A stretch of DNA of 64,000 nucleotides, from positions 6,938 to 70,937 of the forward strand of contig CBDHHN010000002.1 in NCBI GenBank assembly GCA_965263455.1, read 5' to 3'. The DNA is from Acidimicrobiales bacterium (GTDB lineage Bacteria > Actinomycetota > Acidimicrobiia > Acidimicrobiales > SZUA-35). Below the pieces are notes generated by a model. It saw only the letters and a list, made by a program, of their open reading frames with translations, was not told the DNA's origin and searched no databases. Shown here one piece after another: positions 6,056 through 50,397 of the stretch. The translations under genes were made by a program, and so were the position numbers. Every line of letters begins with the position of its first letter. Positions within the stretch are counted from its first letter, which is position 1.

Positions 6056-7612
6056 TCAGCTCGTCGGGTAGAAGCGTGGGCGCCGGGGCAACAGGTGGCG
6101 GCGACGGTCGAGGATGCGGCCGATGCGGAGATCGCCGTCGGCCTGGGCCTGGTTCAACCGCCGCCCGGCATCGAACTCCGAGAGGCGCCGCTGGTCGACC
6201 TCCTGCTCGAGCCCTGCCAGCTGCTCCGGGGTGACCGGAGACGGGCCCCCGAGCCGAGGCCGAATGTCGACGACGAGCACGGCCGCCAGCAGCGACGCCA
6301 ACCCGATCAGCCCCAGCACCGACCAGACGCGGAACAGCGTCGGCCCCGACGCCCCGTCGAGGCCGACCATCGAGGCCAGCCATGGTCCGAGCCGGACACC
6401 GATGCCGGGGGCGACCACGGCCACGGCCACCATGACGAGCGCCAGCAACAGCACCGGAGCCACGGCCCTCAGATCGAGGCGCCGTTCGACGACGCTGCGG
6501 GCCCGAGCCAGCTCCCGCTCCTTGGCCGCCCGGTCCCGCTCCCGGGCGATGACGGCCTCCCGGGCCCGTTGCTGATCGCGACGGCACCGCTCCAGCCGCC
6601 GGCGCAGATCGACCTCCAGCGCGGCCAGGCTGAAGCGGCGCGATCCGGGGACGGGTGGCGACTCGTCGTCGTCCCAGCCCGGCCCGTCGTCCACCGAACG
6701 CAGCCGGCGTTGGAGGACGTCGAGCGAGGCCAACTCCTCGCCCAGGGTGTCGGCCCGCTCGACCCGGGCCGGGGTGGCCCGGAGGCCGAGCAGGGCCACA
6801 TCGACATCGAGGAGGGGATCGGCTTCCAGCGCACGTCGCAGATGGCGGTCGGGCTCGTCGGAGAGCAGGGCCAGGTGGAGTGACAACGCAGGGCACGGCA
6901 GGTCGAGTCGGGCCTCGGTCTCGACCAGGATCTCGTGGGCCCGGTCCTCCCAACCGGAATGGGCCAGGACCAGGGCGGCCGTCATCTCGGCGTAGACGGC
7001 GGCGGCGGGATCGGCCGACCGGAGGTACCGGGCGGCCCGGCGGAGGTGGCGGGAACCCCGGTCGGCGTCGATATCGGCGGCCGCCACTCCGGCCCCGAAC
7101 CAGAAGAACGGCTCGGTCGGGATCTGGTCGGCGGCCTGAAGGAACAGTCGCTCGGCCTCCACGTACCACCCGTTGTGGTGGGCCTGGCACGCCAGTTCGG
7201 CTCGCTCCCGCGCCGCGGCGGCCCCAGGCACCGTGAGCAACGCTTCGGCCCGGACGACGGTGTCGGTCAGGGTCGCCACCGCGGCGTGGACGGCGGCCGC
7301 CGCCGACCCGGGATGGCTCGGTGGCAGGGCGTCGGGCTCGGGCGGCCGGGGCCTCGCCGAGGGATCCCGGGGGCTGAGGGTCAGGGGCTGGTGGAGGATG
7401 GCGTCGAGGGCCACCCCGAGGCGGGAGGCCACGGCGCTGGTGTCGGCGACGTCGCGCGAGACCGCCCGATCGACCGTCCAGGCCAGGGCGCTCGACGACG
7501 CCGGCGGCGGGAACAGGTCGGCCACGAGCGCGCCCAACGCCCGGACCGCGTCCGGGTACGACGCCAACAGCGCCGTCTCGACCGTCCCTCTGGCCTCAGG
7601 TTCCACAGTCAT
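6056..7612 (-). CDS. Hypothetical membrane-anchored protein (helical N-terminal half, Arg/Glu-rich coiled coil, two C-terminal TM helices)
   Basis: Normal amino-acid composition and high GC3 from ATG 7612-7610 (MTVEPEARGTVETALL...). The upstream part of track ORF 6056-8263 is shadow of the nitroreductase gene. I recognise no family. Confidence 0.6.
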   Translation of the reverse strand: MTVEPEARGTVETALLASYPDAVRALGALVADLFPPPASSSALAWTVDRAVSRDVADTSAVASRLGVALDAILHQPLTLSPRDPSARPRPPEPDALPPSHPGSAAAAVHAAVATLTDTVVRAEALLTVPGAAAARERAELACQAHHNGWYVEAERLFLQAADQIPTEPFFWFGAGVAAADIDADRGSRHLRRAARYLRSADPAAAVYAEMTAALVLAHSGWEDRAHEILVETEARLDLPCPALSLHLALLSDEPDRHLRRALEADPLLDVDVALLGLRATPARVERADTLGEELASLDVLQRRLRSVDDGPGWDDDESPPVPGSRRFSLAALEVDLRRRLERCRRDQQRAREAVIARERDRAAKERELARARSVVERRLDLRAVAPVLLLALVMVAVAVVAPGIGVRLGPWLASMVGLDGASGPTLFRVWSVLGLIGLASLLAAVLVVDIRPRLGGPSPVTPEQLAGLEQEVDQRRLSEFDAGRRLNQAQADGDLRIGRILDRRRHLLPRRPRFYPTS

Positions 7613-7725
7613 GATCGGTGCCCGTACCGGGCCGCCACCCTGATGGCGGGCGGCGACACCAGGTCCAGCCAACTCCCCCGCCGACCGATCGTCAACCGCG
7701 GGCCCCGGGACCGGGGCCGAGCCGT

Positions 7726-8367
7726 CTAGCGGATCGGGTTCTTGTAGGTGTCGAGGTAGGTGATCTCCTCGACCGGGGGTCGGGAGGCCGGCTTGAAGTC
7801 GGTGCCCACGGTGTAGCCCACCGGCAGCAGTCCGGCCTGGGTCATGTGGGGTGGGATCCCGAGCAGCTCGGCCGCCTCGGCCTCCAGGCCCAGGTGGAGG
7901 GTGGTGTAGCAGCTGCCGAGGCCACGGCTGCGCAGGGCCAGCTGGAAGCTCCACATGGCCGGGATGATCGACCCGAACAGACCGGCCCCGCCGTTGGGGC
8001 TCTCGTCGGCCCGGCCGACGATCATGGGGATCACCATGACCGGGACCCGGTGGAGGTTCTCGGCCAGGAAGAGGGCGGAGTTCATCACCCGTCCGGTCTG
8101 GGACCCCGCCTCCACGGTTCCCGCCGCCTCCTTGAGGTAGGCACCGCCGGCCCGGTTGTAGAGCTCGGCCAGGCCCGCCTTCTTCTCGGCGTCGCGCACC
8201 ACCAGCCAACGCCAACCCTGGCGGTTCGAGCCCGTCGGGGCCTGGACCGCCAACTGCAGGCACTCCAACAGCACGTCGTCGGGCACCTCCCGCTCGAAGT
8301 CCAGCCGCTTGCGCACGGCCCGCGTCGTCGAGAGAAGGGCGTCCACCTGTCCGAGGTCGAATTCCAT
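7726..8367 (-). CDS. Nitroreductase family protein
   Basis: MEFDLGQVDALLSTTRAVRKRLDFEREVPDDVLLECLQLAVQAPTGSNRQGWRWLVV is a typical actinobacterial nitroreductase N-terminus. ATG is at 8367-8365. Confidence 0.88.
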   Translation of the reverse strand: MEFDLGQVDALLSTTRAVRKRLDFEREVPDDVLLECLQLAVQAPTGSNRQGWRWLVVRDAEKKAGLAELYNRAGGAYLKEAAGTVEAGSQTGRVMNSALFLAENLHRVPVMVIPMIVGRADESPNGGAGLFGSIIPAMWSFQLALRSRGLGSCYTTLHLGLEAEAAELLGIPPHMTQAGLLPVGYTVGTDFKPASRPPVEEITYLDTYKNPIR

Positions 8368-8489: not shown

Positions 8490-9074
8490 ATGACTTCGGT
8501 CCCCTCCCCGAGCCCCCCGAGGTCGGCGCCGGCCCGGCGTCGGCGCCGACTGCTCGTCATCGTGGCCGCGGCCCTGGGCCTGGCCGCCGCAGCCTGCGGC
8601 GACTCCTCGACGGCTCAGGACGAAGCCGGGGGCGTCGTCGCCGACGATGCCACCGTGCTCGATGCCGCCGTCTTCGACGGCACCGCCACCACCGTCGGCG
8701 GGGAGACGTACGATCTGGGCCAACTGGCCGACGCCGACCTGGTGCTGTGGTTCTGGGCCCCGTGGTGAACGTCGTGCAAAGCGGAGGGCCCTGCGGTCGC
8801 AGCGGTCGAGGCAACCTACGGTGACGAGGTCACCTTTGTCGGCATCGGGGGCGAAGCCCCGGGCCAGGAGTTCACCCCCTTCATCGAGCAGACGGGCACC
8901 GGGGCGTTCACCCACCTCGACGACTCGGCCGGTGACCTGTGGTCCCGGTTCGGGACCGGCGGTCGCTCCACCTTCTTGTTCGTCAACGACGACGGCACAT
9001 CGGTGCTGACCACCTATGGCGTGGTCGACGAGACCCGCCTGAAGGCCGAGGTCGAGCGGCTCATCGCCTCCTAG
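8490..9074 (+). CDS. TlpA/ResA-like thioredoxin-fold lipoprotein with an in-frame TGA (8766-8768) at the first Cys of CxxC; either a candidate selenoprotein (UxxC) or a very recent pseudogene
   Basis: The signal peptide and lipobox read RRRRRLLVIVAAALGLAAAAC. Around the TGA the sequence is ...LVLWFWAPW-TGA-TSCKAEGPAVAAVEATYGDEVTFVGIGG...GGRSTFLFVNDDGT...LIAS. The same frame stays open to TAG 9072-9074 with coding-like GC3. The track lists only 8490-8768. Confidence 0.7.
8787..8807 (+). promoter_or_regulatory. SECIS-like hairpin downstream of the in-frame TGA
   Basis: GGCCCUGC-GGUC-GCAG(C)GGUC forms an 8-bp stem with one bulged C and a GGUC apical loop. The stem starts 18 nt after the TGA and the loop starts 26 nt after it. 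Confidence 0.5.
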
Positions 9075-11407
9075 CCGCGGTCGGGGTCCGGCGACGGCGC
9101 CGGACCCGCCTCCGATCCCTCGGCCACGAAGGTCGGGGGATCGAAGGCCGTCACCGGGGGCGGCTCGCCCTCCAATCGTTCGACCTCGACCAGGCAGGTG
9201 TGGGCCGTCGGGCCCTGGGCCAGGCTCGAGGTTCCCTTGTCCCGGGTGAGGACGTTCGGGTTGCCGTGTTTGCACGTCCCGTCGTCGTCGGGGTCGTACC
9301 AGGCGCCGGTGGCCAACTGGACCACGCCGGGCGCCACCGCCGGGCTCAGCACCGCCCCGGCCAGACACGCCCCCCGCTCGTTGAACACCCGCACGACGTC
9401 GCCGTCGTCGATGCCGCGCCGGGCGGCGTCGAGCGGGTTGAGCCGGATCGGCTCCCGGCCTGCCACCTTGGCCGATCGGCTGTGATCGCTGTGGTCGTAC
9501 TGGGAGTGGAGGCGGGTGGTCGGCTGGTTCGAGACCAGGTGCAAGGGCCAACGATCGGCCCCCGCGCCGCCCAGGCGCTCGTAGGGCTCGTACCACCGGG
9601 GATGGCCGACGCAGTCGTCGTAGCCGTAGCCGTCGATCACTTCCGAGAACAGCTCGATCCTGCCCGACGGCGTGCCCAGCGGCCGGCCGTCGGGGTCGGA
9701 CCGGAACGACCCCAGGAACACCTGGTCGGTCTCGCCCATGGCCGGCATGGGGTGGACCACATGGCCGGTGGCCCGGAACTCCTCGTAGGGCGGCGCCGCC
9801 GGGTTCTCATCCCGAAAGCGATCGTAGAGGTGCCGGACCCACTGGTCGGCCGAGCGGCCCTCGGTGAACTCGGGCCCGAAGCCGAGCCGGTGGGCCAGGT
9901 CGGCGTAGACGGCGTAGTCGTCACGGGCCTCGCCCCTGGGGGCGACGGCCCGCTCCATGGCCAACAGGACGGTCTCGGCTCCGCCGAGGTCGTTGCGCTC
10001 GAGGGGTGTGGTCACCGGGAGGACGATGTCGGCCCGCTTGGCCATCGGGGTCCAGAACGGCTCGTGGACCACGATGGTGTCCGGCCGCCGCCAGGCCCGA
10101 TCGAGGCGGTTGAGGTCCTGGTGATGGTGGAAGACGTTGCCTCCGGCCCAGTACACGAGCCGGATGTCCGGGTACAGGTCATGGGTCCCGTCGAAGTCGT
10201 ACCCTCGTCCCGGCCCCTCCAGCATGTCGACGACCCGGGAGGTGGAGATCACGGGCGGCTCGGGGGGCCGGGCCGGAACCGGAAACCCCGGGACTCGTTT
10301 GCGCACCTGTCCCGCCCCGGCATTGCCGTTGGCGCCCAGCGGGAAGGCCAACCCACCGCCGGGGAGACCGACCTGACCCAGCACGCAGGCCAGGGCGAGG
10401 GCCATCCAGTACGGCTGCTCCCCGTGGTCGGCCCGCTGGACCGACAGGCTCAGGTTGATCAGGGTCCGGCCCGACGCCATCCGGTCGGCGAGGGCCTCGA
10501 TGGCCGCCACCTCGATGCCGCAGATCCCGGCCGCCCAGGAGGCCGACTTCGGTTGACCGTCGTCGGCGCCGGAGAGATAGGCCCACAGCCGATCCCAGCC
10601 GACGGTGTAGCGATCGAGGAAGCCGCGGTCGGCCCGGCCGCCGGTGACCAGCGTGTGGATCAGGCCGGCCATGAGGGCGGTGTCGGTCCCGGGGCGGGCC
10701 GGGAGCCAGGTGGTGTCCAGGTCGGACGGCTGGTCGTCGGCCAGAGGGCTGACGTTGACGAAGTGGATGCCTCGTTCCCGGGCCCGGTCGAGCCAGTACC
10801 GGTACCGATGGGGACCCTGGCCCCCGAAGGTGACCTGGGCGTTGTTGAGCCGGATGCTGCCGAAGCCCACGATGGTGTCGGTGTGGGCCACGATCTGCGA
10901 CCACGACGTCTGGGCCCCGACCGCTCGGCCGTAGCCCATGCCGAGGACGTGGGGCACGAGGGCCTCGGCCGCCGACCCGGAGTAGGTGCCGCGACCGTCG
11001 GTGTAGCCGCCGTAGAGGCGGAGGAACCGGTAGGTCTGATTCGACGGCAGGTGGAAACGGCCTGACGAGCCCCAGCCGTAGCTGGCGCCGTAGACGGCCT
11101 GATGGCCGTGCTCGTCCCGGACCCGGGCCAGTTCGGCCGCCACCAGGTCGAGGGCCCGGTCCCAGGAGACCTCGACGAAGGGTTCGCGGCCCCGGCCGTC
11201 GGTGGCCGCCCCCGGCCCGTCCTCCAACCACGAAAGGCGGACGGCGGGTCGGGCCACCCGGCACCGGTCCATGGCCGTCAGCCCCTGCCCCAGGGGCGAC
11301 GGGTCGGTGTCGAGCGGATGGGGGTGGACGGCGGTCACCCGCTCGCCGTCGGACTCGACCAGGAAGGGGCCCCAGTGGGTGGCGGTGGGGGTCAGCGTCA
11401 TGGCCAA
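9071..11407 (-). CDS. Molybdopterin (bis-MGD) oxidoreductase, BisC/TorZ-like S-/N-oxide reductase, cytoplasmic
   Basis: 778 aa. The N-terminus TATHWGPFLVESDGERVTAVHPHP resembles biotin sulfoxide reductase. There is no Tat signal and no N-terminal Fe-S Cys motif. Confidence 0.88.
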   Translation of the reverse strand: MAMTLTPTATHWGPFLVESDGERVTAVHPHPLDTDPSPLGQGLTAMDRCRVARPAVRLSWLEDGPGAATDGRGREPFVEVSWDRALDLVAAELARVRDEHGHQAVYGASYGWGSSGRFHLPSNQTYRFLRLYGGYTDGRGTYSGSAAEALVPHVLGMGYGRAVGAQTSWSQIVAHTDTIVGFGSIRLNNAQVTFGGQGPHRYRYWLDRARERGIHFVNVSPLADDQPSDLDTTWLPARPGTDTALMAGLIHTLVTGGRADRGFLDRYTVGWDRLWAYLSGADDGQPKSASWAAGICGIEVAAIEALADRMASGRTLINLSLSVQRADHGEQPYWMALALACVLGQVGLPGGGLAFPLGANGNAGAGQVRKRVPGFPVPARPPEPPVISTSRVVDMLEGPGRGYDFDGTHDLYPDIRLVYWAGGNVFHHHQDLNRLDRAWRRPDTIVVHEPFWTPMAKRADIVLPVTTPLERNDLGGAETVLLAMERAVAPRGEARDDYAVYADLAHRLGFGPEFTEGRSADQWVRHLYDRFRDENPAAPPYEEFRATGHVVHPMPAMGETDQVFLGSFRSDPDGRPLGTPSGRIELFSEVIDGYGYDDCVGHPRWYEPYERLGGAGADRWPLHLVSNQPTTRLHSQYDHSDHSRSAKVAGREPIRLNPLDAARRGIDDGDVVRVFNERGACLAGAVLSPAVAPGVVQLATGAWYDPDDDGTCKHGNPNVLTRDKGTSSLAQGPTAHTCLVEVERLEGEPPPVTAFDPPTFVAEGSEAGPAPSPDPDRG

Positions 11408-12342: not shown

Positions 12343-13353
12343 TCACCCCTGGCGGTGACGGAGGATGGGCTCCAGGCGGCGCAGCCGGTGGACCTCGGCC
12401 TCGTGGGCCAGGTCCTGCAGGAGGGCGGGCCCGGCCCCTTCCTCCACCCCGGCGTAGGCCAGTCCGATCTGACGCTCGGCGAACCCCTTGTAGTCGGACC
12501 TGATCTGGCGGCCGCGCTCGACCAGGCGCCAACGCTGCTGGGCCGGACGCCGACCCCCGTTGCCCTCGACCCACCCCAGGCGCCCCATACGCTCCAGCGA
12601 CGTCGCCGTCAGCCCGGGCCGAGGGGCAGGGGTGACGAGGGCGCTCATCGTGGCCAGGCTCAGCCCGTCGTCGATACCCCGGCTGGCGGCGAACGACAGG
12701 GCGTCGAGCAGGCGCCGGTCGAGGGGTTCGACCCCGAGCTTGGCCGCCCGGGCGAAGAACAGGTCGTTCAGGTGGAAGTGGGCGGCGCGGAGGGCGGCCC
12801 ACCCCGAGCGGGGTCGGATCTCGACCGGAGTCGGGGGCACGAGGGAGTCGATCAACGGGCCCAGCTCGTTGTCCATGAGGCGCATCACGGCCTCACCGTG
12901 GGCGAGGAGGGCCTGACGTTGCTCGGCGTCGGCCCCGCTGTAGGTCTCCCGCAGCACGATCTCGGCCAGGCGCTGGTAGTCGGCCCGCACGATCCGGCCC
13001 CGGCGACCGAGCCGGAACCGCTTCCCCCGACGGCCCTGCCGTCGCTCACCCCGTTGCTCGAACCATCCCCGGTCGGCCTCGGCCAGGCGCACCAGGGCCG
13101 ACAGCGCGGTCTGGGGCTTGGGTGACGGGGGGATGAGGGCGCAGATGGTTGCCACCGGCAGGCCATCGCCCACCCCCCGCCGCTCGGCGAAGGCCAGGGC
13201 GTCCAGGAGGCGCCGGTCGAGCATGGTGACGCCCATCCGGTCGAGGCCGTCCATGATCAGGTCGTTGACGAAGAAGTGGACCCGGCGGAAGGCACCCCAG
13301 CGGTCGGGATCGAGCTGGTCGGGCGGGCGGAGCGAGGGGTCGGTCGCCGTCAT
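12343..13353 (-). CDS. Hypothetical protein made of two tandem MarR-like winged-helix modules
   Basis: There is an internal duplication of about 150 aa: RRVHFFVNDL...LDRRLLDALAFAERRG..GLPVATI versus LRAAHFHLNDL...LDRRLLDALSFAASRG..GLSLATM. ATG 13353-13351 overlaps the upstream TGA (TGATG). Confidence 0.65.
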   Translation of the reverse strand: MTATDPSLRPPDQLDPDRWGAFRRVHFFVNDLIMDGLDRMGVTMLDRRLLDALAFAERRGVGDGLPVATICALIPPSPKPQTALSALVRLAEADRGWFEQRGERRQGRRGKRFRLGRRGRIVRADYQRLAEIVLRETYSGADAEQRQALLAHGEAVMRLMDNELGPLIDSLVPPTPVEIRPRSGWAALRAAHFHLNDLFFARAAKLGVEPLDRRLLDALSFAASRGIDDGLSLATMSALVTPAPRPGLTATSLERMGRLGWVEGNGGRRPAQQRWRLVERGRQIRSDYKGFAERQIGLAYAGVEEGAGPALLQDLAHEAEVHRLRRLEPILRHRQG

Positions 13354-14147
13354 CACCGGATCCCCCCGCTCCCGGCCCCGTTCCCGGCCGGGGCCGAGCC
13401 GCAGTAGTCCTGCCACAGGACCGGCGGCGGTGGCTCATAGCCGAGATGATGCTGGCCGAAGCACACGATGAACGAGCGGTACTCGACCACGAACCGGGAG
13501 AAGGCGGGGGCCGTCCACCGGAGTTCCCAGGGCACGATGCCGGCCTCGCGCAGCACCGTTCCCAGTTCGCCGTTGACATTGCGGACCACGCCGTCGCCCA
13601 CGTTCAGCAACCGGGTCAGATCGGCCCACCCGCACCAGTCACGCCGCACGGCGGCCACGTACAGCAGCCGGGCGAACCGCTCCCGGGAGACCATGATCTC
13701 ACCCAGGTCGGCGTCGAGGACGAGGCCCGGCGGGAGCGGGTCGAGACAGGTCACGTCGGGCGGCTTCTCCACCGCCACCTCGACGGCGTCGAGCAGATCG
13801 CTGGGGGTTCGGACGCCCACGTCGAGCCGGTGGAACAGGACCTTGGGGTGGCAGTTCCCCTGCGTCACGTGGCGCAGCATCATGGCGTTGGCCGGCCCCG
13901 CCCGCAGGCCCGGGGCGAGCAGGACGTGGTCGGGCAGCAGCGCACCGAGGGCGCACACCCCGAGCACACCGCTGTCGGTCCGCTCGACGGCGGGATGGAC
14001 CACGACGTCCGGAGGGGTGGCGACGGAGATGTCGTCGGGTTGCGAGGGGCGCCCGGGGCGATGGCCCCGAACCTCGTGTTCGGTCCCGAGGGCGGAGGCG
14101 GCGAAGGCCATGCCCGCTCCGAGGTAGTCGATTCGTAGGGTGGTCAT
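13353..14147 (-). CDS. Hypothetical protein, no recognisable family
   Basis: 264 aa with balanced composition (W, C, F, Y and H all present) and high GC3. The competing plus-strand ORFs 13446-14138 and 13468-14127 are R/P/G/S-rich. Confidence 0.6.
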   Translation of the reverse strand: MTTLRIDYLGAGMAFAASALGTEHEVRGHRPGRPSQPDDISVATPPDVVVHPAVERTDSGVLGVCALGALLPDHVLLAPGLRAGPANAMMLRHVTQGNCHPKVLFHRLDVGVRTPSDLLDAVEVAVEKPPDVTCLDPLPPGLVLDADLGEIMVSRERFARLLYVAAVRRDWCGWADLTRLLNVGDGVVRNVNGELGTVLREAGIVPWELRWTAPAFSRFVVEYRSFIVCFGQHHLGYEPPPPVLWQDYCGSAPAGNGAGSGGIR

Positions 14148-14462
14148 GGGCCGACCTCCGTTCCCGACGCCCCGCTCCCCGCTCTACGACGGGAGGTCCT
14201 CCGGTCGTACCCGGTGTCCCCGACCGTCGTCCGGGGTCACCAAGGCGGGCCGTCCGAGACGCTCACAACTGTCATCTGTCAATGATCTCTACGCCGCACG
14301 AGAGCGGTTACGGCTGTGTCTTGTCGGTGACCCGGCGCCGTGCGACAACGGTGACATGGGTGGACGGCCGACGATGAGGCAAGGACCGCAAGCGTTTGCA
14401 GGCCGTGCCGGGCTCGGCGACGGACCGGGCCGCCACCAGGTCGGAACGGACCGGGTGGGGCC

Positions 14463-28709: not shown

Positions 28710-31700
28710 TCACGGCGCCGCCAGCACCGCGTCGTACTGGAGCTTGGTCTGACCACCGGCGATGCAGGCGGTCCGCGTCGCCGTGGACTTGCCGTTGACG
28801 AACTCCCGGCCCTCGGGGGCCACGAACCGGATCCGGTAGCACCCGGCGTCGAGGGTGAACCAGTAGAACCCGGCGTAGTTCGTCGTGGTCGAGTCGACCA
28901 GGGGCCCGAGGGCTCCGCCACCGGCGTGCTCGTAGGCGTGCACGGTCACCCCGGCGGCCCCGAGCCCGCTCTCCTCGGTCACCGAATCGCCGATGACCCC
29001 GGTGGTCACCTCCGGTCCCTTGGCCTGGCCCGTGCTCAGGGCGTAGGCCGACCGGGCGGTGGTGTCCTCGATCCCGCCGAACCCCTCGAACGTATTGAAG
29101 ACGTCGACCACGAAGTCGGGATCGACGTCGTCGGCGGTGCCCAGCACGCCGTCGGGACCGACACCGAAGATCGACTCGAACTCGCCACCGGCATCCATCA
29201 GCGACGGCTGGGGGTTGAACGTCTCGGTGTGCCAGTTGCCGATGAAGTGCCCGACCTCGTGGGCGGCGATGTGGCCGACGCCGAACCCGATGAGGTCGAT
29301 CTTGGTCGCCCCGTTGGCCAGCCCGTAGGAGTTCAGACTGATGGGATCACCGGCCGGACTGCTCAACAGGTCGAGCAGCACGACCCCGGTCTCGGTGCTG
29401 TCGGTGTTACCCGGGTCGATGGACTGGGCGATGCCGATGGTCGGAATCTGCAACTGGTCGATGGTGCCGCCGACCACGATGCGGCTGACGTCGGGGTCAC
29501 CCCAACGGTCACCGTGATCGCGGCTGTTGAGGATCTCGATGTCGAACTGGGTGCCTCGGCCCTGACGGTCCCGGTTGCCGTTGCGGCCATCCACGATGCG
29601 CAGGTCGGTGTCCAGGTTCTCCACCATGGCGTCGAGAACGGCGTCGATCACGGCGTCCTCGTCGGCCGGCTCGAGGCCCCAGGCCGGCAGGAAGTCGGCC
29701 AGGGGCGACAGGGGCTGGGCCGGGGTGGGGACGGGTGGGGGCGGCCCGAAGAACAGGTCGGGTGAGACCTCGGCCCCGTCGAAGTCGACGAAGATGATCT
29801 GCTGGGCCTGACCCGGCTCATCGGCCCGCCCGGCCTTCACCACCTGCAGCTGCCCCTCGTAGGGGCCGTCGCCCTCGGTGACGAACACGGCATGACGCCC
29901 CTTGCGGGTGACCACGTGGTCGAAGCCGACCCGCCGGTCGTGCCGCAGCGGCGAGTCGGCCGGGTAGATGAAGCTGGGGTTGAACCCCGACTGCATGACC
30001 AGGGTCCCGCCGGGGTCGATGATCCCGGCCACCCGGGCCGAATCGAAACCACCACTGATGGCGTCACCCTTCTCCAGATCGACCAGGTAGACGTCGACGT
30101 CGATCACGGGTTCGGCGTCGGCCATGGCCTCGGCGATCTCGTCGCGGCGGTCCTCGAGAGCGGCCAGCGCCGCGGCCCTGGTTTCGGCCCGCTGGCCGTC
30201 GCGGGCCGCCACCAACGAGGCGGGATCGATGCGTCGGACCCCCCAGTTCGGACCGACGATGCCGTCGATGACCTCCTGGGTGGTGTCGACCAGGGCCAGG
30301 CCGTAGGGGCCGACGACGGCGGTGTCGGTACCGGTCGTACTGTCGAACGGATCGGTGGGCAGGCCGCCGGTGATGGCCACGTGGTAGACGCCGGTGGCCG
30401 GTACCGTCAGCTGCACGAACCCGGGCACCGCCTCGCCCCCGTCGCTGTCCTGACCGGAAAGGACGAGGTCTCCGGCCTCGTCGTAGATCCCGACCACGAA
30501 GTTCTCGATCACGGGGTCGGGTCCGAAGTCGACCAGATCGACGACGAGTTCCTTGCCCTCCTGGACCACCCGGGTGCTGTAGAAGTCGACGTCGCCGGTG
30601 CCGGCCTGGGGTCCATCACCGACGAAGCCGTCGCAGAAGGTCACGAACAGTTCGTCGTCACCGGTGCCCCCCGAGGCGTCGTTGGCCAACGGGATGGCGC
30701 CGTCGTCCTCGTCGGAGAAGCAGGGAGGCGGTGGGGGACTGACGCTACCGATCACCACCTCGTAGCCACCGGTGTCGGTCACGCCGGCCCCGCTCGACGA
30801 GTCGAAGGGGTCGGACGGCAGCGGCCCGGCGCCGACCACGGCCACCACGTACTCGCCCGTCGCCGGCGCCGGCACCTCCAGGAACTCGGGCAGCTCGGGG
30901 TCGCCGCTGTCGTCGATCGAGGCCACCAGATTGCCGGCGCCGTCGTAGATGGCGACGGTGGTCTCAACCCCGTCAGGGTTCTCGAAGTGGACGACGTCGG
31001 CCAGGATCAGGTCGCCCTCGGGCACGGTGCCGACCCGGTAGAAGTCGGCGTCACCGGTGCTGGCCCCGAACGGCCCGTCACCGATGAATCCGAGACAGAA
31101 CTCGACGGTGTCGACCAGGTCACCCCGGTCGTTGGCCAGGGGGATGGAGCCGTCGTCCTCGACCGAGACGCAGGGCGGAGGCAAGGTGACGACGAAGAGG
31201 TCGTAGGTGCCGTCGGTCGTGACCCCGGCGCCGCTGGTGGGATCGAAGGGGTCGGTGGGGAGTGGCCCGGCACCGACCACGAAGCCGAAGTACTCGCCGT
31301 CGGCCGGGGCTTCCACCACGAGGAACTCGGGAAGGTTGGGATCACCGGAATCATCGACCGAACCGAGCAGGTTGCCCGCGGCGTCGTAGATGGCCAGCGT
31401 GGTGGCGGCGGCCTGAAGCGAGTCGGAGACGTTGGCCGAATCGAGGATCAGGGTCGACCCGGCGGCCACCTCGCCATAGGAGAACACGTCGATGTCGCCC
31501 GTGGTCGAGCCGTGGGGTCCGTCGCCGATCTCCCCGGCGCACAGGGCCACGTCGAAGGCGGGAACGGGGTTGGCCAGGGGGATGGAGCCGTCGTCCTCGG
31601 TCGAGAAGCAGTCGAACGGCACCGGCAACCGGGGCTCGGCCCCGGACAGATGGCCCTCGATGGTCACGGCCCGGTTCTGGTTGCGACCGGTGCCGAACCT

Positions 31701-32123
31701 CGGAATGCGCTGACCGGTGGCCGGGGTGTCGTTGACGCCCGTCTCGCCCGGGGCCTCCCGTTCGCTCACCTCGGTGAAGCGGGGCCTCCCCCGACGACCG
31801 TCGACCGGGAGTTGCTCGTGCGCCGGCAGCTGGGCGGCCACGTCGACCCAGGTCTCGACAACGGTCTCGCTCCGCTCCCGGCCCAGCGAGAGCCAGGGCG
31901 GCGGACCGAGGCGGCCCAGTTCGTCGATCTCGTCGCTGGCGAGGGCGCCGTCGGCCCCCTCCAACTGCTGTTGGACCTCGGCCGCCGCCTCCTCCTGCAC
32001 CGCGGCAGAGGTCGGATCCTCCTGCCCCGACGTCGGTGGCGTGTTCACCAGTCCGAACACCATGATCGCGGCCACCAGAACGGCCGCCCGCCGTACGATC
32101 ATCATCGTCCCCCTCCTGACCAT
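28710..32123 (-). CDS. Large secreted zinc metalloprotease with three PPC-like repeat modules and a C-terminal CarboxypepD_reg-like domain
   Basis: Signal peptide present. There are three modules of about 147 aa. The zincin motif is HIAAHEVGHFIGNWH (HExxH). The C-terminal beta-sandwich region reads GVTVHAYEH...GFYWFTLDAGCYRIRF. Confidence 0.85.
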   Translation of the reverse strand: MVRRGTMMIVRRAAVLVAAIMVFGLVNTPPTSGQEDPTSAAVQEEAAAEVQQQLEGADGALASDEIDELGRLGPPPWLSLGRERSETVVETWVDVAAQLPAHEQLPVDGRRGRPRFTEVSEREAPGETGVNDTPATGQRIPRFGTGRNQNRAVTIEGHLSGAEPRLPVPFDCFSTEDDGSIPLANPVPAFDVALCAGEIGDGPHGSTTGDIDVFSYGEVAAGSTLILDSANVSDSLQAAATTLAIYDAAGNLLGSVDDSGDPNLPEFLVVEAPADGEYFGFVVGAGPLPTDPFDPTSGAGVTTDGTYDLFVVTLPPPCVSVEDDGSIPLANDRGDLVDTVEFCLGFIGDGPFGASTGDADFYRVGTVPEGDLILADVVHFENPDGVETTVAIYDGAGNLVASIDDSGDPELPEFLEVPAPATGEYVVAVVGAGPLPSDPFDSSSGAGVTDTGGYEVVIGSVSPPPPPCFSDEDDGAIPLANDASGGTGDDELFVTFCDGFVGDGPQAGTGDVDFYSTRVVQEGKELVVDLVDFGPDPVIENFVVGIYDEAGDLVLSGQDSDGGEAVPGFVQLTVPATGVYHVAITGGLPTDPFDSTTGTDTAVVGPYGLALVDTTQEVIDGIVGPNWGVRRIDPASLVAARDGQRAETRAAALAALEDRRDEIAEAMADAEPVIDVDVYLVDLEKGDAISGGFDSARVAGIIDPGGTLVMQSGFNPSFIYPADSPLRHDRRVGFDHVVTRKGRHAVFVTEGDGPYEGQLQVVKAGRADEPGQAQQIIFVDFDGAEVSPDLFFGPPPPVPTPAQPLSPLADFLPAWGLEPADEDAVIDAVLDAMVENLDTDLRIVDGRNGNRDRQGRGTQFDIEILNSRDHGDRWGDPDVSRIVVGGTIDQLQIPTIGIAQSIDPGNTDSTETGVVLLDLLSSPAGDPISLNSYGLANGATKIDLIGFGVGHIAAHEVGHFIGNWHTETFNPQPSLMDAGGEFESIFGVGPDGVLGTADDVDPDFVVDVFNTFEGFGGIEDTTARSAYALSTGQAKGPEVTTGVIGDSVTEESGLGAAGVTVHAYEHAGGGALGPLVDSTTTNYAGFYWFTLDAGCYRIRFVAPEGREFVNGKSTATRTACIAGGQTKLQYDAVLAAP
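30288..31613 (-). repeat. Three tandem protein-level repeats of about 147 aa inside the metalloprotease gene
   Basis: Each unit reads C-x-S-x-EDDG-[SA]-IPLAN...GDGP...TGD-x-D-[FV]-[YF]...[AG]IYD-x-AG-[ND]L[VL]...D[DS]-x-G...P-x-DPFD-x-[ST]-x-G. The units cover aa 171-612. Confidence 0.85.
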
Positions 32124-32264
32124 GCCGACCCTTCTGCCGGTGGCCTTTCACGACAATCGGGGCCAACCATAGACAACAGGGCTAACCGCTTGCTGTCGGG
32201 CCCCTGTCGAGCTCCACCCCGACGCACGCCGGTACGGAGCGGTACGGCTCAGCCGTCGCCGATC

Positions 32265-46640: not shown

Positions 46641-47985
46641 GGCGCTCCTCTTTTCCTCCCAGCTTCTCGCTGAGAACTCGATCCCGATACCAGTGGGCGC
46701 TGGCCTTGGGTTTGCGCTCGAGACCGGCGGGATCGATAGCGACCAGTCCGAACGTCTTCCGATAGCCCTCGGCCCACTCGAAGTTGTCCATCAGTGACCA
46801 TGCATAATAGCCGTCGACGGGCACGCCGGCCTGTCGAGCCCGGGCCACCTCGGCCAGGTGCCCGCTCAGGTAGTCGATGCGGTCCGCGTCGTCGACCGTG
46901 CCATCGGGCCTGGTCCGGTCGTCGGGCATGGCAGCGCCGTTCTCGGTGATCAGGTAGCGCCGGAACCGGTGCCGGTCGTGCAGCCCGATCAACAGGTCGC
47001 CCAGGCCGCGGGGGATGATCTCCCACCCGAAGTCGGTGACCGGACCCTCCGGGTCGAGCACGGTGCCGTCGGCGGCCAGGCGCTGGCACGTGTAGTAGTT
47101 GATGCCGAGCACGTCCACCGGCGCCGCGATCAGTTCGAGGTCGCCGGGCCGAATCTCGGCCTGATCCCACTCCAGGCCCGCGACCCCCTCGGCCGGGTAG
47201 CCGAGCCCGGCCAGGGGCTCCACGTACCATCGGTTCTCCCAGGCGTCGACCACGGCCGCCGCCGTCCCCGCCTCGGGGGTGGGCAGGATGGGGGTGAAGT
47301 TGAGCACGACCCCGACCTCGGCCCGCGGGGCGGCGGCCCGCAGGACGGGTACGGCCAGACCGTGGGCCAGAAGCAGGTGATGAGCCACGGCCAGCGCTTC
47401 GGGCAGCGACTGCCGACCGGGGGCGTGGACGCCCAGGCAGTGCCCGTGATGGGTGCTGACGAAGGGCTCGTTGAGCGTGAACCAGGTGTCGACCCGGTCG
47501 CCCAGCCGTTCGGCCGTCACCTGGGCGTAGCGGGCGAAGGCCTCGGCCGTGGACCGTTCCCGCCAGCCACCCCGTTCCTCCAGGGCCTGGGGCAGATCCC
47601 AGTGGTAGAGGGTGGGGGCCGGGGTGATGCCGGCCTCGAGCAGGGTGTCGACCAACCGGTCGTAGAAGTCGAGCCCAGCGGGGTTCACGGCACCGTCTCC
47701 GTCGGGGACGACGCGGGGCCACGCCACCGAGAACCGGTACGAGTCGAGCCCGAGCCAGCGCATCAGGGCGACATCGTCGTCGACCCGGTGGTAGTGGTCG
47801 CAGGCCGTGATCCCGTCGGAGCCGTCGGCGATGGCCCCGGGCACGGTGCAGAAGCGGTCCCAGATGCTCTCGCCCTTGCCGTCGGCGTCGGCTGCGCCCT
47901 CGATCTGGAACGACGAGGTGGCGGCCCCCCACACGAACCCGGGACCGAGGAGGGCCGAGGACGAGGTGTCGGCGTGATCGGTCAC
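46633..47985 (-). CDS. GH1 beta-glucosidase
   Basis: FVWGAATSSFQIEGA, TLNEP (acid/base Glu) and ITENGAA (nucleophile Glu). Confidence 0.95.
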
Positions 47986-49370
47986 GGCGTCCAGCTCGCA
48001 TCGATGGCCTGAGCGCCCTCGGCCGCCGTCTTCTCACCGGCGACGATGGCCGTGCCCTCGGACCAGAACGTCCCCGATCCGACCGCCGGAGGCATGAGGT
48101 CGGAAGCGTCGTACCGGGCCACGTCGGCCCCGAGGACGATCTCCACGAACGAGGCCTCGATCCCCGAGTACAGGCTGGTGTCGAGACCGGCGGCGGCCGA
48201 CAGGAAGCCCGACACCTCCTCGCCCACCCGATCGTTCTGGGCCTGGCGCCGGGCGTCGGCGTAGTCGGCCGACGAGAGGTAGGCCATCACCTCCCACACC
48301 TCGGGAGCATCCCGGACGGCGGCCGCCAGCGACGCCCCGACCACGATGGGGCGGCCCTCATCGGCCGGAAGCGGGAACACGTCCACCGGGTCCTCCTCGA
48401 TGCCGAAATCGGAGCCGTCGGGAATGAAGTCGATGTACCGGTCGCTCTCGCGGTGCATGAGGCACTCACCGTCGACCAGGTACTGGCCGTTGTCCCCGAA
48501 CGGCGTGGTGGCGATCGTGCCGCCTCCGGCGAACACGACGCCCGGGGTGTTCCACAGCTCCACGATCTCCTCCATCGGTCCGGTGACGGCCTCGTCGTCG
48601 AACGGGATCTGGTTGGTGACCCACCGGTCGTAGGTGTCGGGGCCGGACAGGCGCAGGACCAGGTCCTCGGTCCAGTCGGTGAAGACCCGGCCGGTGGTCG
48701 GACCCGATTCGATCCCGACACAGAGCGGGGTGTTGCCATCGGCCACGGCCGCGGTCACCAGCGACCGGAACTCGTTCCAGGTCTCGGGAACGGTGTAGCC
48801 GAACTCCTCGAACCGGGCCGGCTGATACCACACCAGCGACTTGACCTCGGCCCCCGTCGGGACCCCGTACTGCTCGCCGTCGACCACCGCCACCCGGTTC
48901 CAATCCGACCCCCAGCTGGCGTCGGCGGCGTCGGCCACCTCCGACGGCAGGGGCTCGACCGCCCCCTGGTCGACCAGGTCCAGCAGGGCGGCGGGCCGAT
49001 CGAACATGACGATGTCGGGTCCGTCGTCGCTCCCGAGCCGCGCCGCCAACTCGGCGTCGAAGTCGCGGACGCCCGTGTAGCGGATGGGGATCCCGGCCTC
49101 GACCGACAGCTCGTCCAGCGCGTCCTGGATGGCTCCGGCCTCATCGGCCGCACTCTCGAACCCGAGGACGGTGACCACACCGTCGTCCACGTCGTCGTCC
49201 GCGGCCGGATCGTCGCCGGCAGCCGTCGCGTCGTCACCGGCCGAGGGCTGCTCGTGCCCGAGTTCTTCGGCCTCCTCGTCCCCGCCGGAGCAGGCGGCGA
49301 GGCTCAGACCGAGCCCCATGGCCAGCCCGATCAGGACCGGTCTGACCCTCAGCGTCGTCACCCTGCGCAT
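47982..49370 (-). CDS. ABC sugar-binding lipoprotein (family 1 SBP), copy 1
   Basis: Lipobox LSLAACSGG and an acidic linker. It aligns along its whole length with the copy at 53169-54581. Confidence 0.88.
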   Translation of the reverse strand: MRRVTTLRVRPVLIGLAMGLGLSLAACSGGDEEAEELGHEQPSAGDDATAAGDDPAADDDVDDGVVTVLGFESAADEAGAIQDALDELSVEAGIPIRYTGVRDFDAELAARLGSDDGPDIVMFDRPAALLDLVDQGAVEPLPSEVADAADASWGSDWNRVAVVDGEQYGVPTGAEVKSLVWYQPARFEEFGYTVPETWNEFRSLVTAAVADGNTPLCVGIESGPTTGRVFTDWTEDLVLRLSGPDTYDRWVTNQIPFDDEAVTGPMEEIVELWNTPGVVFAGGGTIATTPFGDNGQYLVDGECLMHRESDRYIDFIPDGSDFGIEEDPVDVFPLPADEGRPIVVGASLAAAVRDAPEVWEVMAYLSSADYADARRQAQNDRVGEEVSGFLSAAAGLDTSLYSGIEASFVEIVLGADVARYDASDLMPPAVGSGTFWSEGTAIVAGEKTAAEGAQAIDASWTP

Positions 49371-49386
49371 GAACCCTCCCGGTGGC

Positions 49387-50397
49387 TCAGCCCTTTACCG
49401 AGCCCGCGAGGATACCCCGGACGAAGAACCGCTGGAGCAGGAAGAAGACCAGGAGCGGCACCGCGGCCTGGACGAAGGCACCGGCCGTCAGGAGATGCTC
49501 GTTGCGCCCGAACTCACCGGTCAGGGCGGCGATGCGGACCGTCATCGGGCTGATCTCTCCCCCGGCGTCTCCCATCACGGTGGCGATGAGCAGATCGTTC
49601 CAGGTCCACAGGAACTGGAAGATGGCGAAGGCGGCCAGCACGGGCACCGACAGCGGCACCACCAGGCGCCAGAAGATCGTGAAGTGATCGGCCCCGTCGA
49701 TCCGGGCCGACTCGAAGACGTCCTTGGGGAGCGACTTGATGTAGTTGTGCAGGAGGAAGATGGCGAAGGGCATGGCAAAGGCCGTGTGCGACAACCAGAT
49801 GGCGGTCGACGTCCCCTGCAGACCCACGTCGGGCAGCAGGGTCACCGTCTTGTCGGTGCCCCAGATGGTCCAGTGGGCCCCGCCGGCGTAGGTCTGCAGC
49901 AGCGGGAGCAGCGCCGTCTGGTTGGGGATGGCGAGCAGGGCCACCACGCCGATGAACAGCGTCTCCCGCCCCCGGAACTCGATCCAGGCGAAGGCGTAGG
50001 CGGCGAAGGCGGCGATGGCGATCGGAATGATCGTGGCCGGGATGGCGATGGCGAAGCTGTTGACCAGACCGTCGCGGAGGCCGCCACTGGCCTGCGAGCT
50101 CCACACCGCGTCGTAGTTGTCGATGGTGAAGGCGTCCCAACCGGCAGGGATGTCACTGCCCTCCTCGGCCACCACCGACGGCGGCAGGAAGATCTCCCAG
50201 AACACGCTGGCCCGCTGGGCGTCGCGACCTCGGAACGAGTTCAGGAACAGGCTGGCCGTGGGAAGGGTCCAGATCGTGACGATGACCCACAGCAACCACG
50301 TGGGGATGCCGGAAAGGAACCGGTAGATGGTGGACGACAGGCCGGGCCCGCCCCGGGCAGCCCCGGGGGCGGACGTCGGGACCTCGTGCGTGGTCAT
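49387..50397 (-). CDS. Carbohydrate ABC transporter permease (MalG-like)
   Basis: 336 aa with 6 TM helices and an EAA loop ESARIDGADHFTIFWRLVVPLS. Confidence 0.92.
   Translation of the reverse strand: MTTHEVPTSAPGAARGGPGLSSTIYRFLSGIPTWLLWVIVTIWTLPTASLFLNSFRGRDAQRASVFWEIFLPPSVVAEEGSDIPAGWDAFTIDNYDAVWSSQASGGLRDGLVNSFAIAIPATIIPIAIAAFAAYAFAWIEFRGRETLFIGVVALLAIPNQTALLPLLQTYAGGAHWTIWGTDKTVTLLPDVGLQGTSTAIWLSHTAFAMPFAIFLLHNYIKSLPKDVFESARIDGADHFTIFWRLVVPLSVPVLAAFAIFQFLWTWNDLLIATVMGDAGGEISPMTVRIAALTGEFGRNEHLLTAGAFVQAAVPLLVFFLLQRFFVRGILAGSVKG

Follow-up and report, generated by a model that had tools for sequence, protein, structure and literature searches.

Here, we describe a hairpin downstream of an in-frame UGA codon in a 64,000-nucleotide (nt) stretch of genomic DNA (hereafter the window, 71% G+C) from an Acidimicrobiales bacterium (GenBank assembly GCA_965263455.1, contig CBDHHN010000002.1, positions 6,938 to 70,937 of the forward strand). 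The UGA interrupts a gene for a thioredoxin-fold protein at positions 8490-9074 of the window, and the hairpin, at 8787-8807, very probably acts as a functional selenocysteine insertion sequence (SECIS) that directs insertion of selenocysteine (Sec, U) at residue 93 of a DsbE/MPT53/TlpA-like lipoprotein, as judged from sequence comparison. The features at the locus, with the evidence for each, are:

8490-9074, + strand: complete predicted selenoprotein gene of 194 codons, one of them the in-frame TGA, with a TAG stop at 9072-9074 (translation, Pfam and PDB matches)
8490-8597, + strand: predicted signal peptide with lipobox, ending at Cys36, codon 8595-8597 (read from the translation)
8766-8768, + strand: in-frame UGA, predicted Sec codon U93, first position of the UxxC motif WFWAPW-U-TS-C (alignment)
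8775-8777, + strand: TGC codon for C96, the resolving Cys of UxxC (translation; invariant alignment column)
8787-8807, + strand: putative SECIS hairpin (folds; conservation and covariation in 95 aligned TGA-form genes; synonymous-site constraint)
8787-8790 with 8804-8807, + strand: lower helix of the hairpin (RNAfold)
8791-8794 with 8799-8802, + strand: upper helix of the hairpin (RNAfold)
8803, + strand: bulged C on the 3' strand of the hairpin (RNAfold)
8795-8798, + strand: apical tetraloop GGUC, presumed SelB contact, with the equivalents of fdhF G23 and U24 (sequence; PMC8659212)

The gene and its hairpin

The translation of 8490-9074 scores above the Pfam cut-offs for Thioredoxin, Redoxin and AhpC-TSA, and its nearest solved structures are M. 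tuberculosis MPT53/DsbE (1LU4, E = 9e-20) and DsbF (3IOS, E = 6e-19). The predicted product is thus a thioredoxin-fold thiol:disulfide oxidoreductase related to DsbE/MPT53/TlpA/ResA. Its N-terminus runs from an R-rich n-region through a hydrophobic core to L-A-A-A-A-C36, a pattern shared by Cys homologues (...AACG), and the protein is probably a lipoprotein with a signal peptide. The TGA aligns exactly on the first Cys of an invariant L-W-F-W-A-P-W-C-x-x-C in 14 Cys homologues (~30-46% identity), which places a predicted redox centre at U93-T-S-C96. Across the 101 codons downstream of the TGA, the G+C content at third codon positions (GC3) is 0.89, and the family-invariant residues C96, V114, G118, H142, D145, G148, G169 and G177 are kept. 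Since TGA is the usual stop for most predicted open reading frames (ORFs) in the window, it serves there as a normal stop, and a reassigned genetic code was rejected. At codons R159-S160 (8964-8969), R-S replaces the Q-P of the thioredoxin-fold cis-proline loop; Q-P is found in 94 of 116 Sec forms and in M. tuberculosis DsbE, and R-S in only 5 of the 116.

Read directly from the window, 8787-8807 is GGCCCTGCGGTCGCAGCGGTC. RNAfold folds this 21-mer as ((((((((....)))).)))) at -10.3 kcal/mol, a structure that makes up 0.88 of the ensemble and has z = -2.05 against shuffled sequences. A first-pass annotation made from the letters alone had proposed the identical pairing, 8787-8794 with 8799-8807, in 8 base pairs (bp) including one G-U, with C8803 bulged and a GGUC loop. 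It had also placed the hairpin inside coding sequence (G-P-A-V-A-A-V), as the translation confirms, and put its loop 26 nt from the UGA, within a range of 16-37 nt; by measurement, the distance from the TGA at 8766-8768 is 18 nt to the stem and 26 nt to the loop. The stem is retained in the minimum free energy (MFE) and centroid folds of both 8766-8830 and 8766-8810, the former being a check that the annotation had set beforehand.

TGA-form relatives and selection on the RNA

A collection holding one genome per bacterial species was scanned with the pattern TGG TTY TGG GCN CCN TGG TGA NNN NNN TGY. The resulting motif, WFWAPW-TGA-xx-C, occurs in at least 120 further loci from at least ~109 genomes. 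Among the matches listed, nearly all carriers are Acidimicrobiia (Acidimicrobiales, Ilumatobacter, Microthrix, Ca. Poriferisodalis, Aldehydirespiratoraceae) or Nitriliruptoria (Euzebya, Egibacteraceae), and every listed gene not cut by the end of its locus has 89-106 open codons after the TGA. The TGA-form proteins are 20-65% identical to the window protein, whose six best matches are all TGA forms (42-65% identity). Such divergence, together with six nearest relatives that all carry the TGA, indicates that the TGA is ancient and maintained and excludes a recent nonsense mutation or sequencing error.

Cys-form controls were 119 genes from metagenomes that match the same pattern with TGY at the Sec position; in all hairpin counts, nucleotides were numbered from the T of the TGA, without indels. 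Of the 121 TGA forms, 95 have GGTC at nt +29 to +32, compared with 20 of the 119 Cys forms. When closure of the GGUC by a stem of at least 3 bp at the +26 offset is added, the counts become 85/121 and 1/119, and the 26-nt spacing from UGA to loop is identical in all 85 hairpins. The first-pass annotation had named TGA-carrying orthologues as a check, and in these the hairpin is conserved with compensatory substitutions. In an alignment of 95 TGA-form sequences, 86.5% of the cells of a seven-pair helix are paired, vs 28-58% in registers shifted by 1-3 columns. Covariation in this alignment scores 0.320, vs 0.152 +/- 0.012 after shuffling (0 of 500 shuffles reach the observed value), and 53 cells are changed on both sides of the helix. 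The upper helix occurs as CUGC/GCAG (53), GUGC/GCAU (10), CCUC/GAGG (8), GUGC/GCAC (4), CGGC/GCCG (3) and others, and RNAalifold, run without an input structure, recovers three core pairs de novo, each with compensatory changes. The irregularity under the helix varies among the 85 relatives: a 1x1 mismatch (C.C or C.A) in ~35, a 5' bulged C in ~21 and none in ~20.

Codon usage in the stem and loop points to selection on the RNA rather than on the protein. In the TGA forms, stem Pro is CCT in 61 of 91 cases and stem Ala is GCA in 72 of 107, both rare codons, whereas Cys forms favour CCC/CCG for Pro and GCC for Ala. At the loop position, GTC makes up 113 of the 120 Val codons of TGA forms vs 47 of the 89 of Cys forms, in which Val is split between GTC and GTG, and third-position entropy is 0.43 bits at this codon vs ~1.5 elsewhere. 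Synonymous codons were also redrawn from each gene's own usage with the amino-acid sequence held fixed, scoring GGUC with four closing pairs; 4.4 hairpins are expected by this resampling vs 80 of 116 observed, and the window gene itself would have the hairpin in 3% of its resamplings.

The base after the predicted Sec UGA is A in the window; among the 95 aligned genes, C is the commonest (51), ahead of A (29), G (12) and T (3). At least ten genomes (metagenome-assembled genomes, MAGs) hold two TGA-form paralogues, each with its own hairpin (loci L064+L068, L036+L084, L017+L111, L035+L051, L028+L113, L065+L073, L039+L097, L010+L118, L060+L098 and L099+L120); L064 and L068 lie ~70 kb apart on a single Ca. 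Poriferisodalis contig. Four of the TGA-form loci (L020, L048, L069 and L105) belong to MAGs assigned to Chthoniobacterales, Gammaproteobacteria, Acidobacteria and Myxococcota, and their sequences resemble the Acidimicrobiia type; their placement could reflect mis-binning or horizontal transfer.

Many of the genes without the +26 GGUC hairpin are Nitriliruptoria-like (Euzebya, Egibacteraceae, Nitriliruptorales). The 3'-shifted hairpins seen in place of it are of the types UCGCGC-AGGUG/AGGUU/GGGUC-GCGCGA or GGCUGC-GGUC-GCAGCC, and in many cases another hairpin, CCGGG-AGGCU-CCCGG, lies upstream of them at +16; either could serve as SECIS. The loci concerned, compared over nt +12 to +55, are L002, L012-L014, L016, L018, L021, L028-L030, L032, L038, L040, L056, L062, L063, L070, L071, L074, L078, L080, L081, L083, L085, L088, L092, L094, L096, L106, L110, L113 and L115.

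The hairpin as a probable SECIS element

In the likely mechanism, a ribosome reaching the UGA at 8766-8768 would find the downstream mRNA folded into a hairpin whose GGUC tetraloop caps a helix of 4 bp, with an irregularity of one base, and the C-terminal winged-helix domain of SelB would bind the exposed loop bases. SelB.GTP.Sec-tRNA(Sec) would thereby be tethered at the A site, and the UGA would be decoded as Sec instead of stop. In the product, U-T-S-C would replace CxxC as the redox centre; once exported and lipidated, the protein would presumably act as a disulfide oxidoreductase outside the cytoplasm, its selenolate being a more reactive nucleophile. The structure of the hairpin, its fixed position, its covariation, its restriction to TGA forms, the selection at synonymous sites and the intact, conserved downstream ORF are observed; that SelB binds, that Sec is inserted, and that the protein is exported, lipidated and active in redox chemistry is inferred.

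In the bSECISearch model of Zhang and Gladyshev (2005), as summarised in PMC13188914, a bacterial SECIS (bSECIS) has a loop of 3-9 nt on an upper stem of 4-16 bp, a UGA-to-loop spacing of 16-37 nt and an MFE of -7.5 kcal/mol or lower; one or both of the first two loop bases are G, and G or U usually comes next. The window hairpin lies within these limits, with a 4-nt loop, 4+4 bp, GG, 26 nt and -10.3 kcal/mol. It also has the further traits of bacterial SECIS elements: a stem-loop within the ORF 3' of an in-frame UGA, a UGA aligned with Cys in homologues, compensatory conservation in UGA orthologues and near-absence from Cys orthologues (1/119). Relative to the bSECIS consensus, the element of this family is far more constrained (fixed offset, near-invariant GGUC, CUGC/GCAG predominant).

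At the level of the RNA, a close known system is the SECIS of E. coli fdhF, whose sequence UGACACGGCCCAUCGGUUGCAGGUCUGCACC... is found at 99% identity or more, annotated as fdhF, in the genome records of 5,413 E. coli. Its minimal 17-nt SelB-binding hairpin spans nt 15-31 from the U of the UGA, U17 and G23 are reported SelB contacts, and roles are also described for the loop residues G23 and U24 (PMC8659212). The fdhF hairpin folds as a GGUC tetraloop on a 4-bp helix with the single bulged U17 below it, on the 5' strand. Both elements lie in coding sequence 3' of a UGA and have a 4-bp upper helix, a GGUC loop and a one-base irregularity directly under that helix, followed by a short G-C lower helix. 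They differ in the bulge, which is a 3'-strand C (C8803) in the window and the 5'-strand U17 in fdhF, and in distance from the UGA, the loop starting at 26 vs 18 nt (8 nt more in the window) and the minimal hairpin at 18 vs 11 nt (7 nt more). The window stem, all G-C or G-U except for one U-A pair, is far more stable than that of fdhF (-10.3 vs -4.2 kcal/mol), and its host gene encodes a thioredoxin-fold protein, not a formate dehydrogenase. The resemblance to the fdhF SECIS top proposed in the first-pass annotation therefore holds for the loop, the 4-bp helix and the presence of a one-base irregularity, and fails for the strand and base of the bulge and for the UGA distance. The element would act like the fdhF top, yet lacks two of three strict 'fdhF-type' features.

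At the level of the protein, known UxxC thioredoxin-fold selenoproteins share with the window product the Thioredoxin/Redoxin/AhpC-TSA fold, Sec in place of the N-terminal Cys of CxxC and a predicted redox role. Those families have been defined mainly from proteobacterial genomes and marine metagenomes, whereas the clade of the window is centred in Acidimicrobiia and Nitriliruptoria, and has a WFWAPW-U-xx-C signature, a lipoprotein signal and M. tuberculosis DsbE and DsbF as nearest structures. The clade might coincide with the published 'thiol-disulfide isomerase-like' (cd02966) selenoprotein family (reference MGB1650493.1, PMC13188914). M. tuberculosis DsbE (MPT53, 1LU4) and DsbF (3IOS) are likewise secreted actinobacterial thioredoxin-fold proteins with WFW(T/A)PWCxxC, but have Cys instead of Sec, no in-frame UGA or SECIS, and Q-P where the window protein has R-S.

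Several results weigh against a SECIS at 8787-8807. The 65-nt region 8766-8830 folds no better than its shuffles (z = +0.61). GGTC-tetraloop hairpins of at least 7 bp are not enriched in the window, with 10 on both strands vs 13.5 +/- 3.3 in dinucleotide shuffles, which bears out an earlier caution that GC hairpins arise by chance in GC-rich DNA. Rfam gives zero matches at gathering scores across the whole window, no Rfam family fits the hairpin, and a permissive scan of 8700-8900 returns only chance microRNA and long non-coding RNA matches. The window hairpin has no counterpart of the 5'-bulged U of fdhF that E. coli SelB is reported to require, and ~30% of the TGA-form relatives use a different hairpin, ~9 nt further 3'. 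The generic bSECIS criteria are passed by 68 of 119 Cys controls (57%) vs 116 of 120 Sec forms in a rough scorer of our own, for which only pass counts are used, its per-sequence loop calls being unreliable. Cys controls (L121-L240, nt +16 to +60), which have no UGA, thus often pass, a high false-positive rate in GC-rich coding DNA. Because the hairpin is unremarkable within the window, the weight rests on its position relative to the in-frame TGA and on the comparative data; because the generic model is uninformative at this G+C content, family-specific conservation carries the argument.

The search for Sec machinery also weighs on this side: no selA, selB, selD or tRNA-Sec, and no tRNA at all, lies within the 64-kb window. 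Pfam searches of ~30 window ORFs find no Sec machinery, no tRNA-Sec is present in any of the 120 TGA-form loci of 8 kb, and tblastn of approximate E. coli SelA, SelB and SelD queries against all loci yields GTPase-domain matches only. Two of these matches, in TGA-form loci L074 and L080, were rejected as SelB, being TypA/BipA. Ilumatobacter coccineus, I. nonamiensis and Ca. Microthrix parvicella have 15, 10 and 7 selenoproteins, respectively, counts unusually high for Actinobacteria, and all are positive for SelD, SelA and SelB (PMC5029168 supplements). Actinomarinales are reported to have universal Sec machinery with a divergent SelB (2026 preprint); literature on Sec in Acidimicrobiia is otherwise very thin. 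From the conservation pattern and this literature on relatives, the source organism is presumably competent for Sec.

The machinery lacking from the window, the unenriched hairpin and the poor regional fold would all suit a pseudogene, in which a TGC of a Cys-type DsbE-like gene became TGA by nonsense mutation or sequencing error, a single substitution, and a GC hairpin follows by chance. Such a history would not account for at least 120 loci, from at least ~109 genomes, that share the TGA codon, some genomes having two paralogues, with 89-106 codons open downstream, nor for a covarying hairpin conserved in TGA forms only, nor for invariant residues and a GC3 of 0.89 downstream of the TGA. The recurrence, the specificity for TGA forms and the six nearest relatives, all TGA forms at 42-65% identity, already effectively refute this explanation, which we consider extremely improbable. 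Conservation of the hairpin might also be a by-product of a conserved P-A-V-A peptide after CxxC, with no RNA element involved, given that P101 is nearly invariant, that V is common at the matching positions of Cys homologues and that GGTC occurs at the same offset in 20/119 Cys forms. Among Cys forms, which encode similar peptides, only 1 of 119 has the stem; synonymous resampling leaves 4.4 hairpins where 80 are observed, and 3% for the window gene; and PAVA, GAVA, PSVE and AAVA correspond to CUGC/GCAG, GUGC/GCAC, CCUC/GAGG and CGGC/GCCG, so that the amino acids differ and the pairing is kept. This alternative is refuted, and its remaining probability is negligible.

The hairpin could instead be a recoding signal that works without SelB or Sec, for example by promoting near-cognate read-through of the UGA (as Trp, Cys or Arg), or it could be a site of translational pausing or regulation. 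UGA followed by C is a leaky stop context, and C is the most frequent base after the UGA in the family (51/95). The hairpin also lacks the fdhF-like 5'-bulged U and lies 8 nt further from the UGA, and Sec machinery in this genome is presumed from its relatives. The UGA, however, replaces the catalytic Cys of CxxC, the classic Sec/Cys signature (PMC13188914), and the loop is the SelB-recognition tetraloop GGUC, in a spacing and geometry that fit the bSECIS model. The carrier lineages are documented Sec users with many selenoproteins, and an enzyme with Trp or Arg in place of the nucleophile would be inactive. We regard recoding of this kind as very unlikely, and Sec insertion directed by 8787-8807 as the explanation best in accord with the data.

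Annotation status, significance and neighbouring genes

A search of 5.8 billion predicted proteins returned Cys forms only and no full-length Sec form, and no NCBIfam model reaches its cut-off on the window protein, with sub-threshold thioredoxin, ResA, TlpA and DsbE matches only. With no NCBIfam or Rfam coverage and only Cys forms in the protein database, the family appears largely unannotated, though its kind is known. Gene callers halt at UGA, so a selenoprotein family of this sort is split or missed. UxxC thioredoxin-fold selenoproteins are already well known, and the hairpin is not surprising to a specialist. The hairpin is a very clean candidate SECIS with strong covariation, and appears to expose an unannotated clade of selenoproteins, widespread in the Actinomycetota, that has two classes of SECIS.

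Once the SECIS is recognised, a predicted redox lipoprotein can be annotated correctly in more than 100 species of actinobacteria, among them Ca. Poriferisodalis (sponge symbionts), Microthrix (a wastewater filament) and marine Ilumatobacter. The result also suggests that selenium is used in the extracytoplasmic thiol-disulfide chemistry of these actinobacteria. The ~120 Sec and ~120 Cys forms with the same flanking motif constitute a natural experiment on which nucleotides a SECIS constrains in coding sequence. For selenoprotein prediction in general, they advise caution, the generic bSECIS model being poorly specific at 70% GC.

More tentatively, the hairpin may represent an undescribed, lineage-wide type of SECIS for unannotated, exported DsbE/MPT53-like selenoprotein lipoproteins in Acidimicrobiia. 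Its CUGC-GGUC-GCAG core is almost sequence-invariant at a fixed 26 nt despite protein divergence to 20-65% identity, and a second putative SECIS class is present in Nitriliruptoria-like members, in which the hairpin lies ~9 nt further 3', has AGGUN or GGGUC as its loop and follows an additional hairpin on its 5' side. If true, this would suggest lineage-specific co-evolution of the SECIS with the divergent SelB reported for the class, and would provide a ready-made covariance model for Actinomycetota selenoproteins, where current tools and Rfam find nothing.

Candidates for other selenoprotein genes in the window were rejected. Four sets of adjacent same-frame ORFs (FHA/nuclease; Amt/GlnB; monooxygenase/DUF4397 and a further ORF; LacI/next ORF) are ordinary neighbouring genes, and the other two GGUC hairpins preceded by a TGA at 16-37 nt are either antisense or in another frame. 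When 0.9 Mb of loci were searched for the same hairpin type behind other in-frame TGAs, the four candidates that emerged were weak and lacked a redox motif.

Elsewhere in the window, ORFs with coding-like GC3 and no Pfam match at E <= 1e-5 lie on the - strand at 28713-32147 (1,145 amino acids), 6059-8263 (735 amino acids), 12346-14183 (two ORFs of ~360 and 276 amino acids) and 47985-49394 (470 amino acids). A molybdopterin oxidoreductase gene of 778 amino acids (9071-11407, - strand) has no in-frame TGA and is thus not a Sec-type formate dehydrogenase. It is convergent with the predicted selenoprotein gene, and its stop (9071-9073) overlaps the TAG at 9072-9074 by 2 nt.

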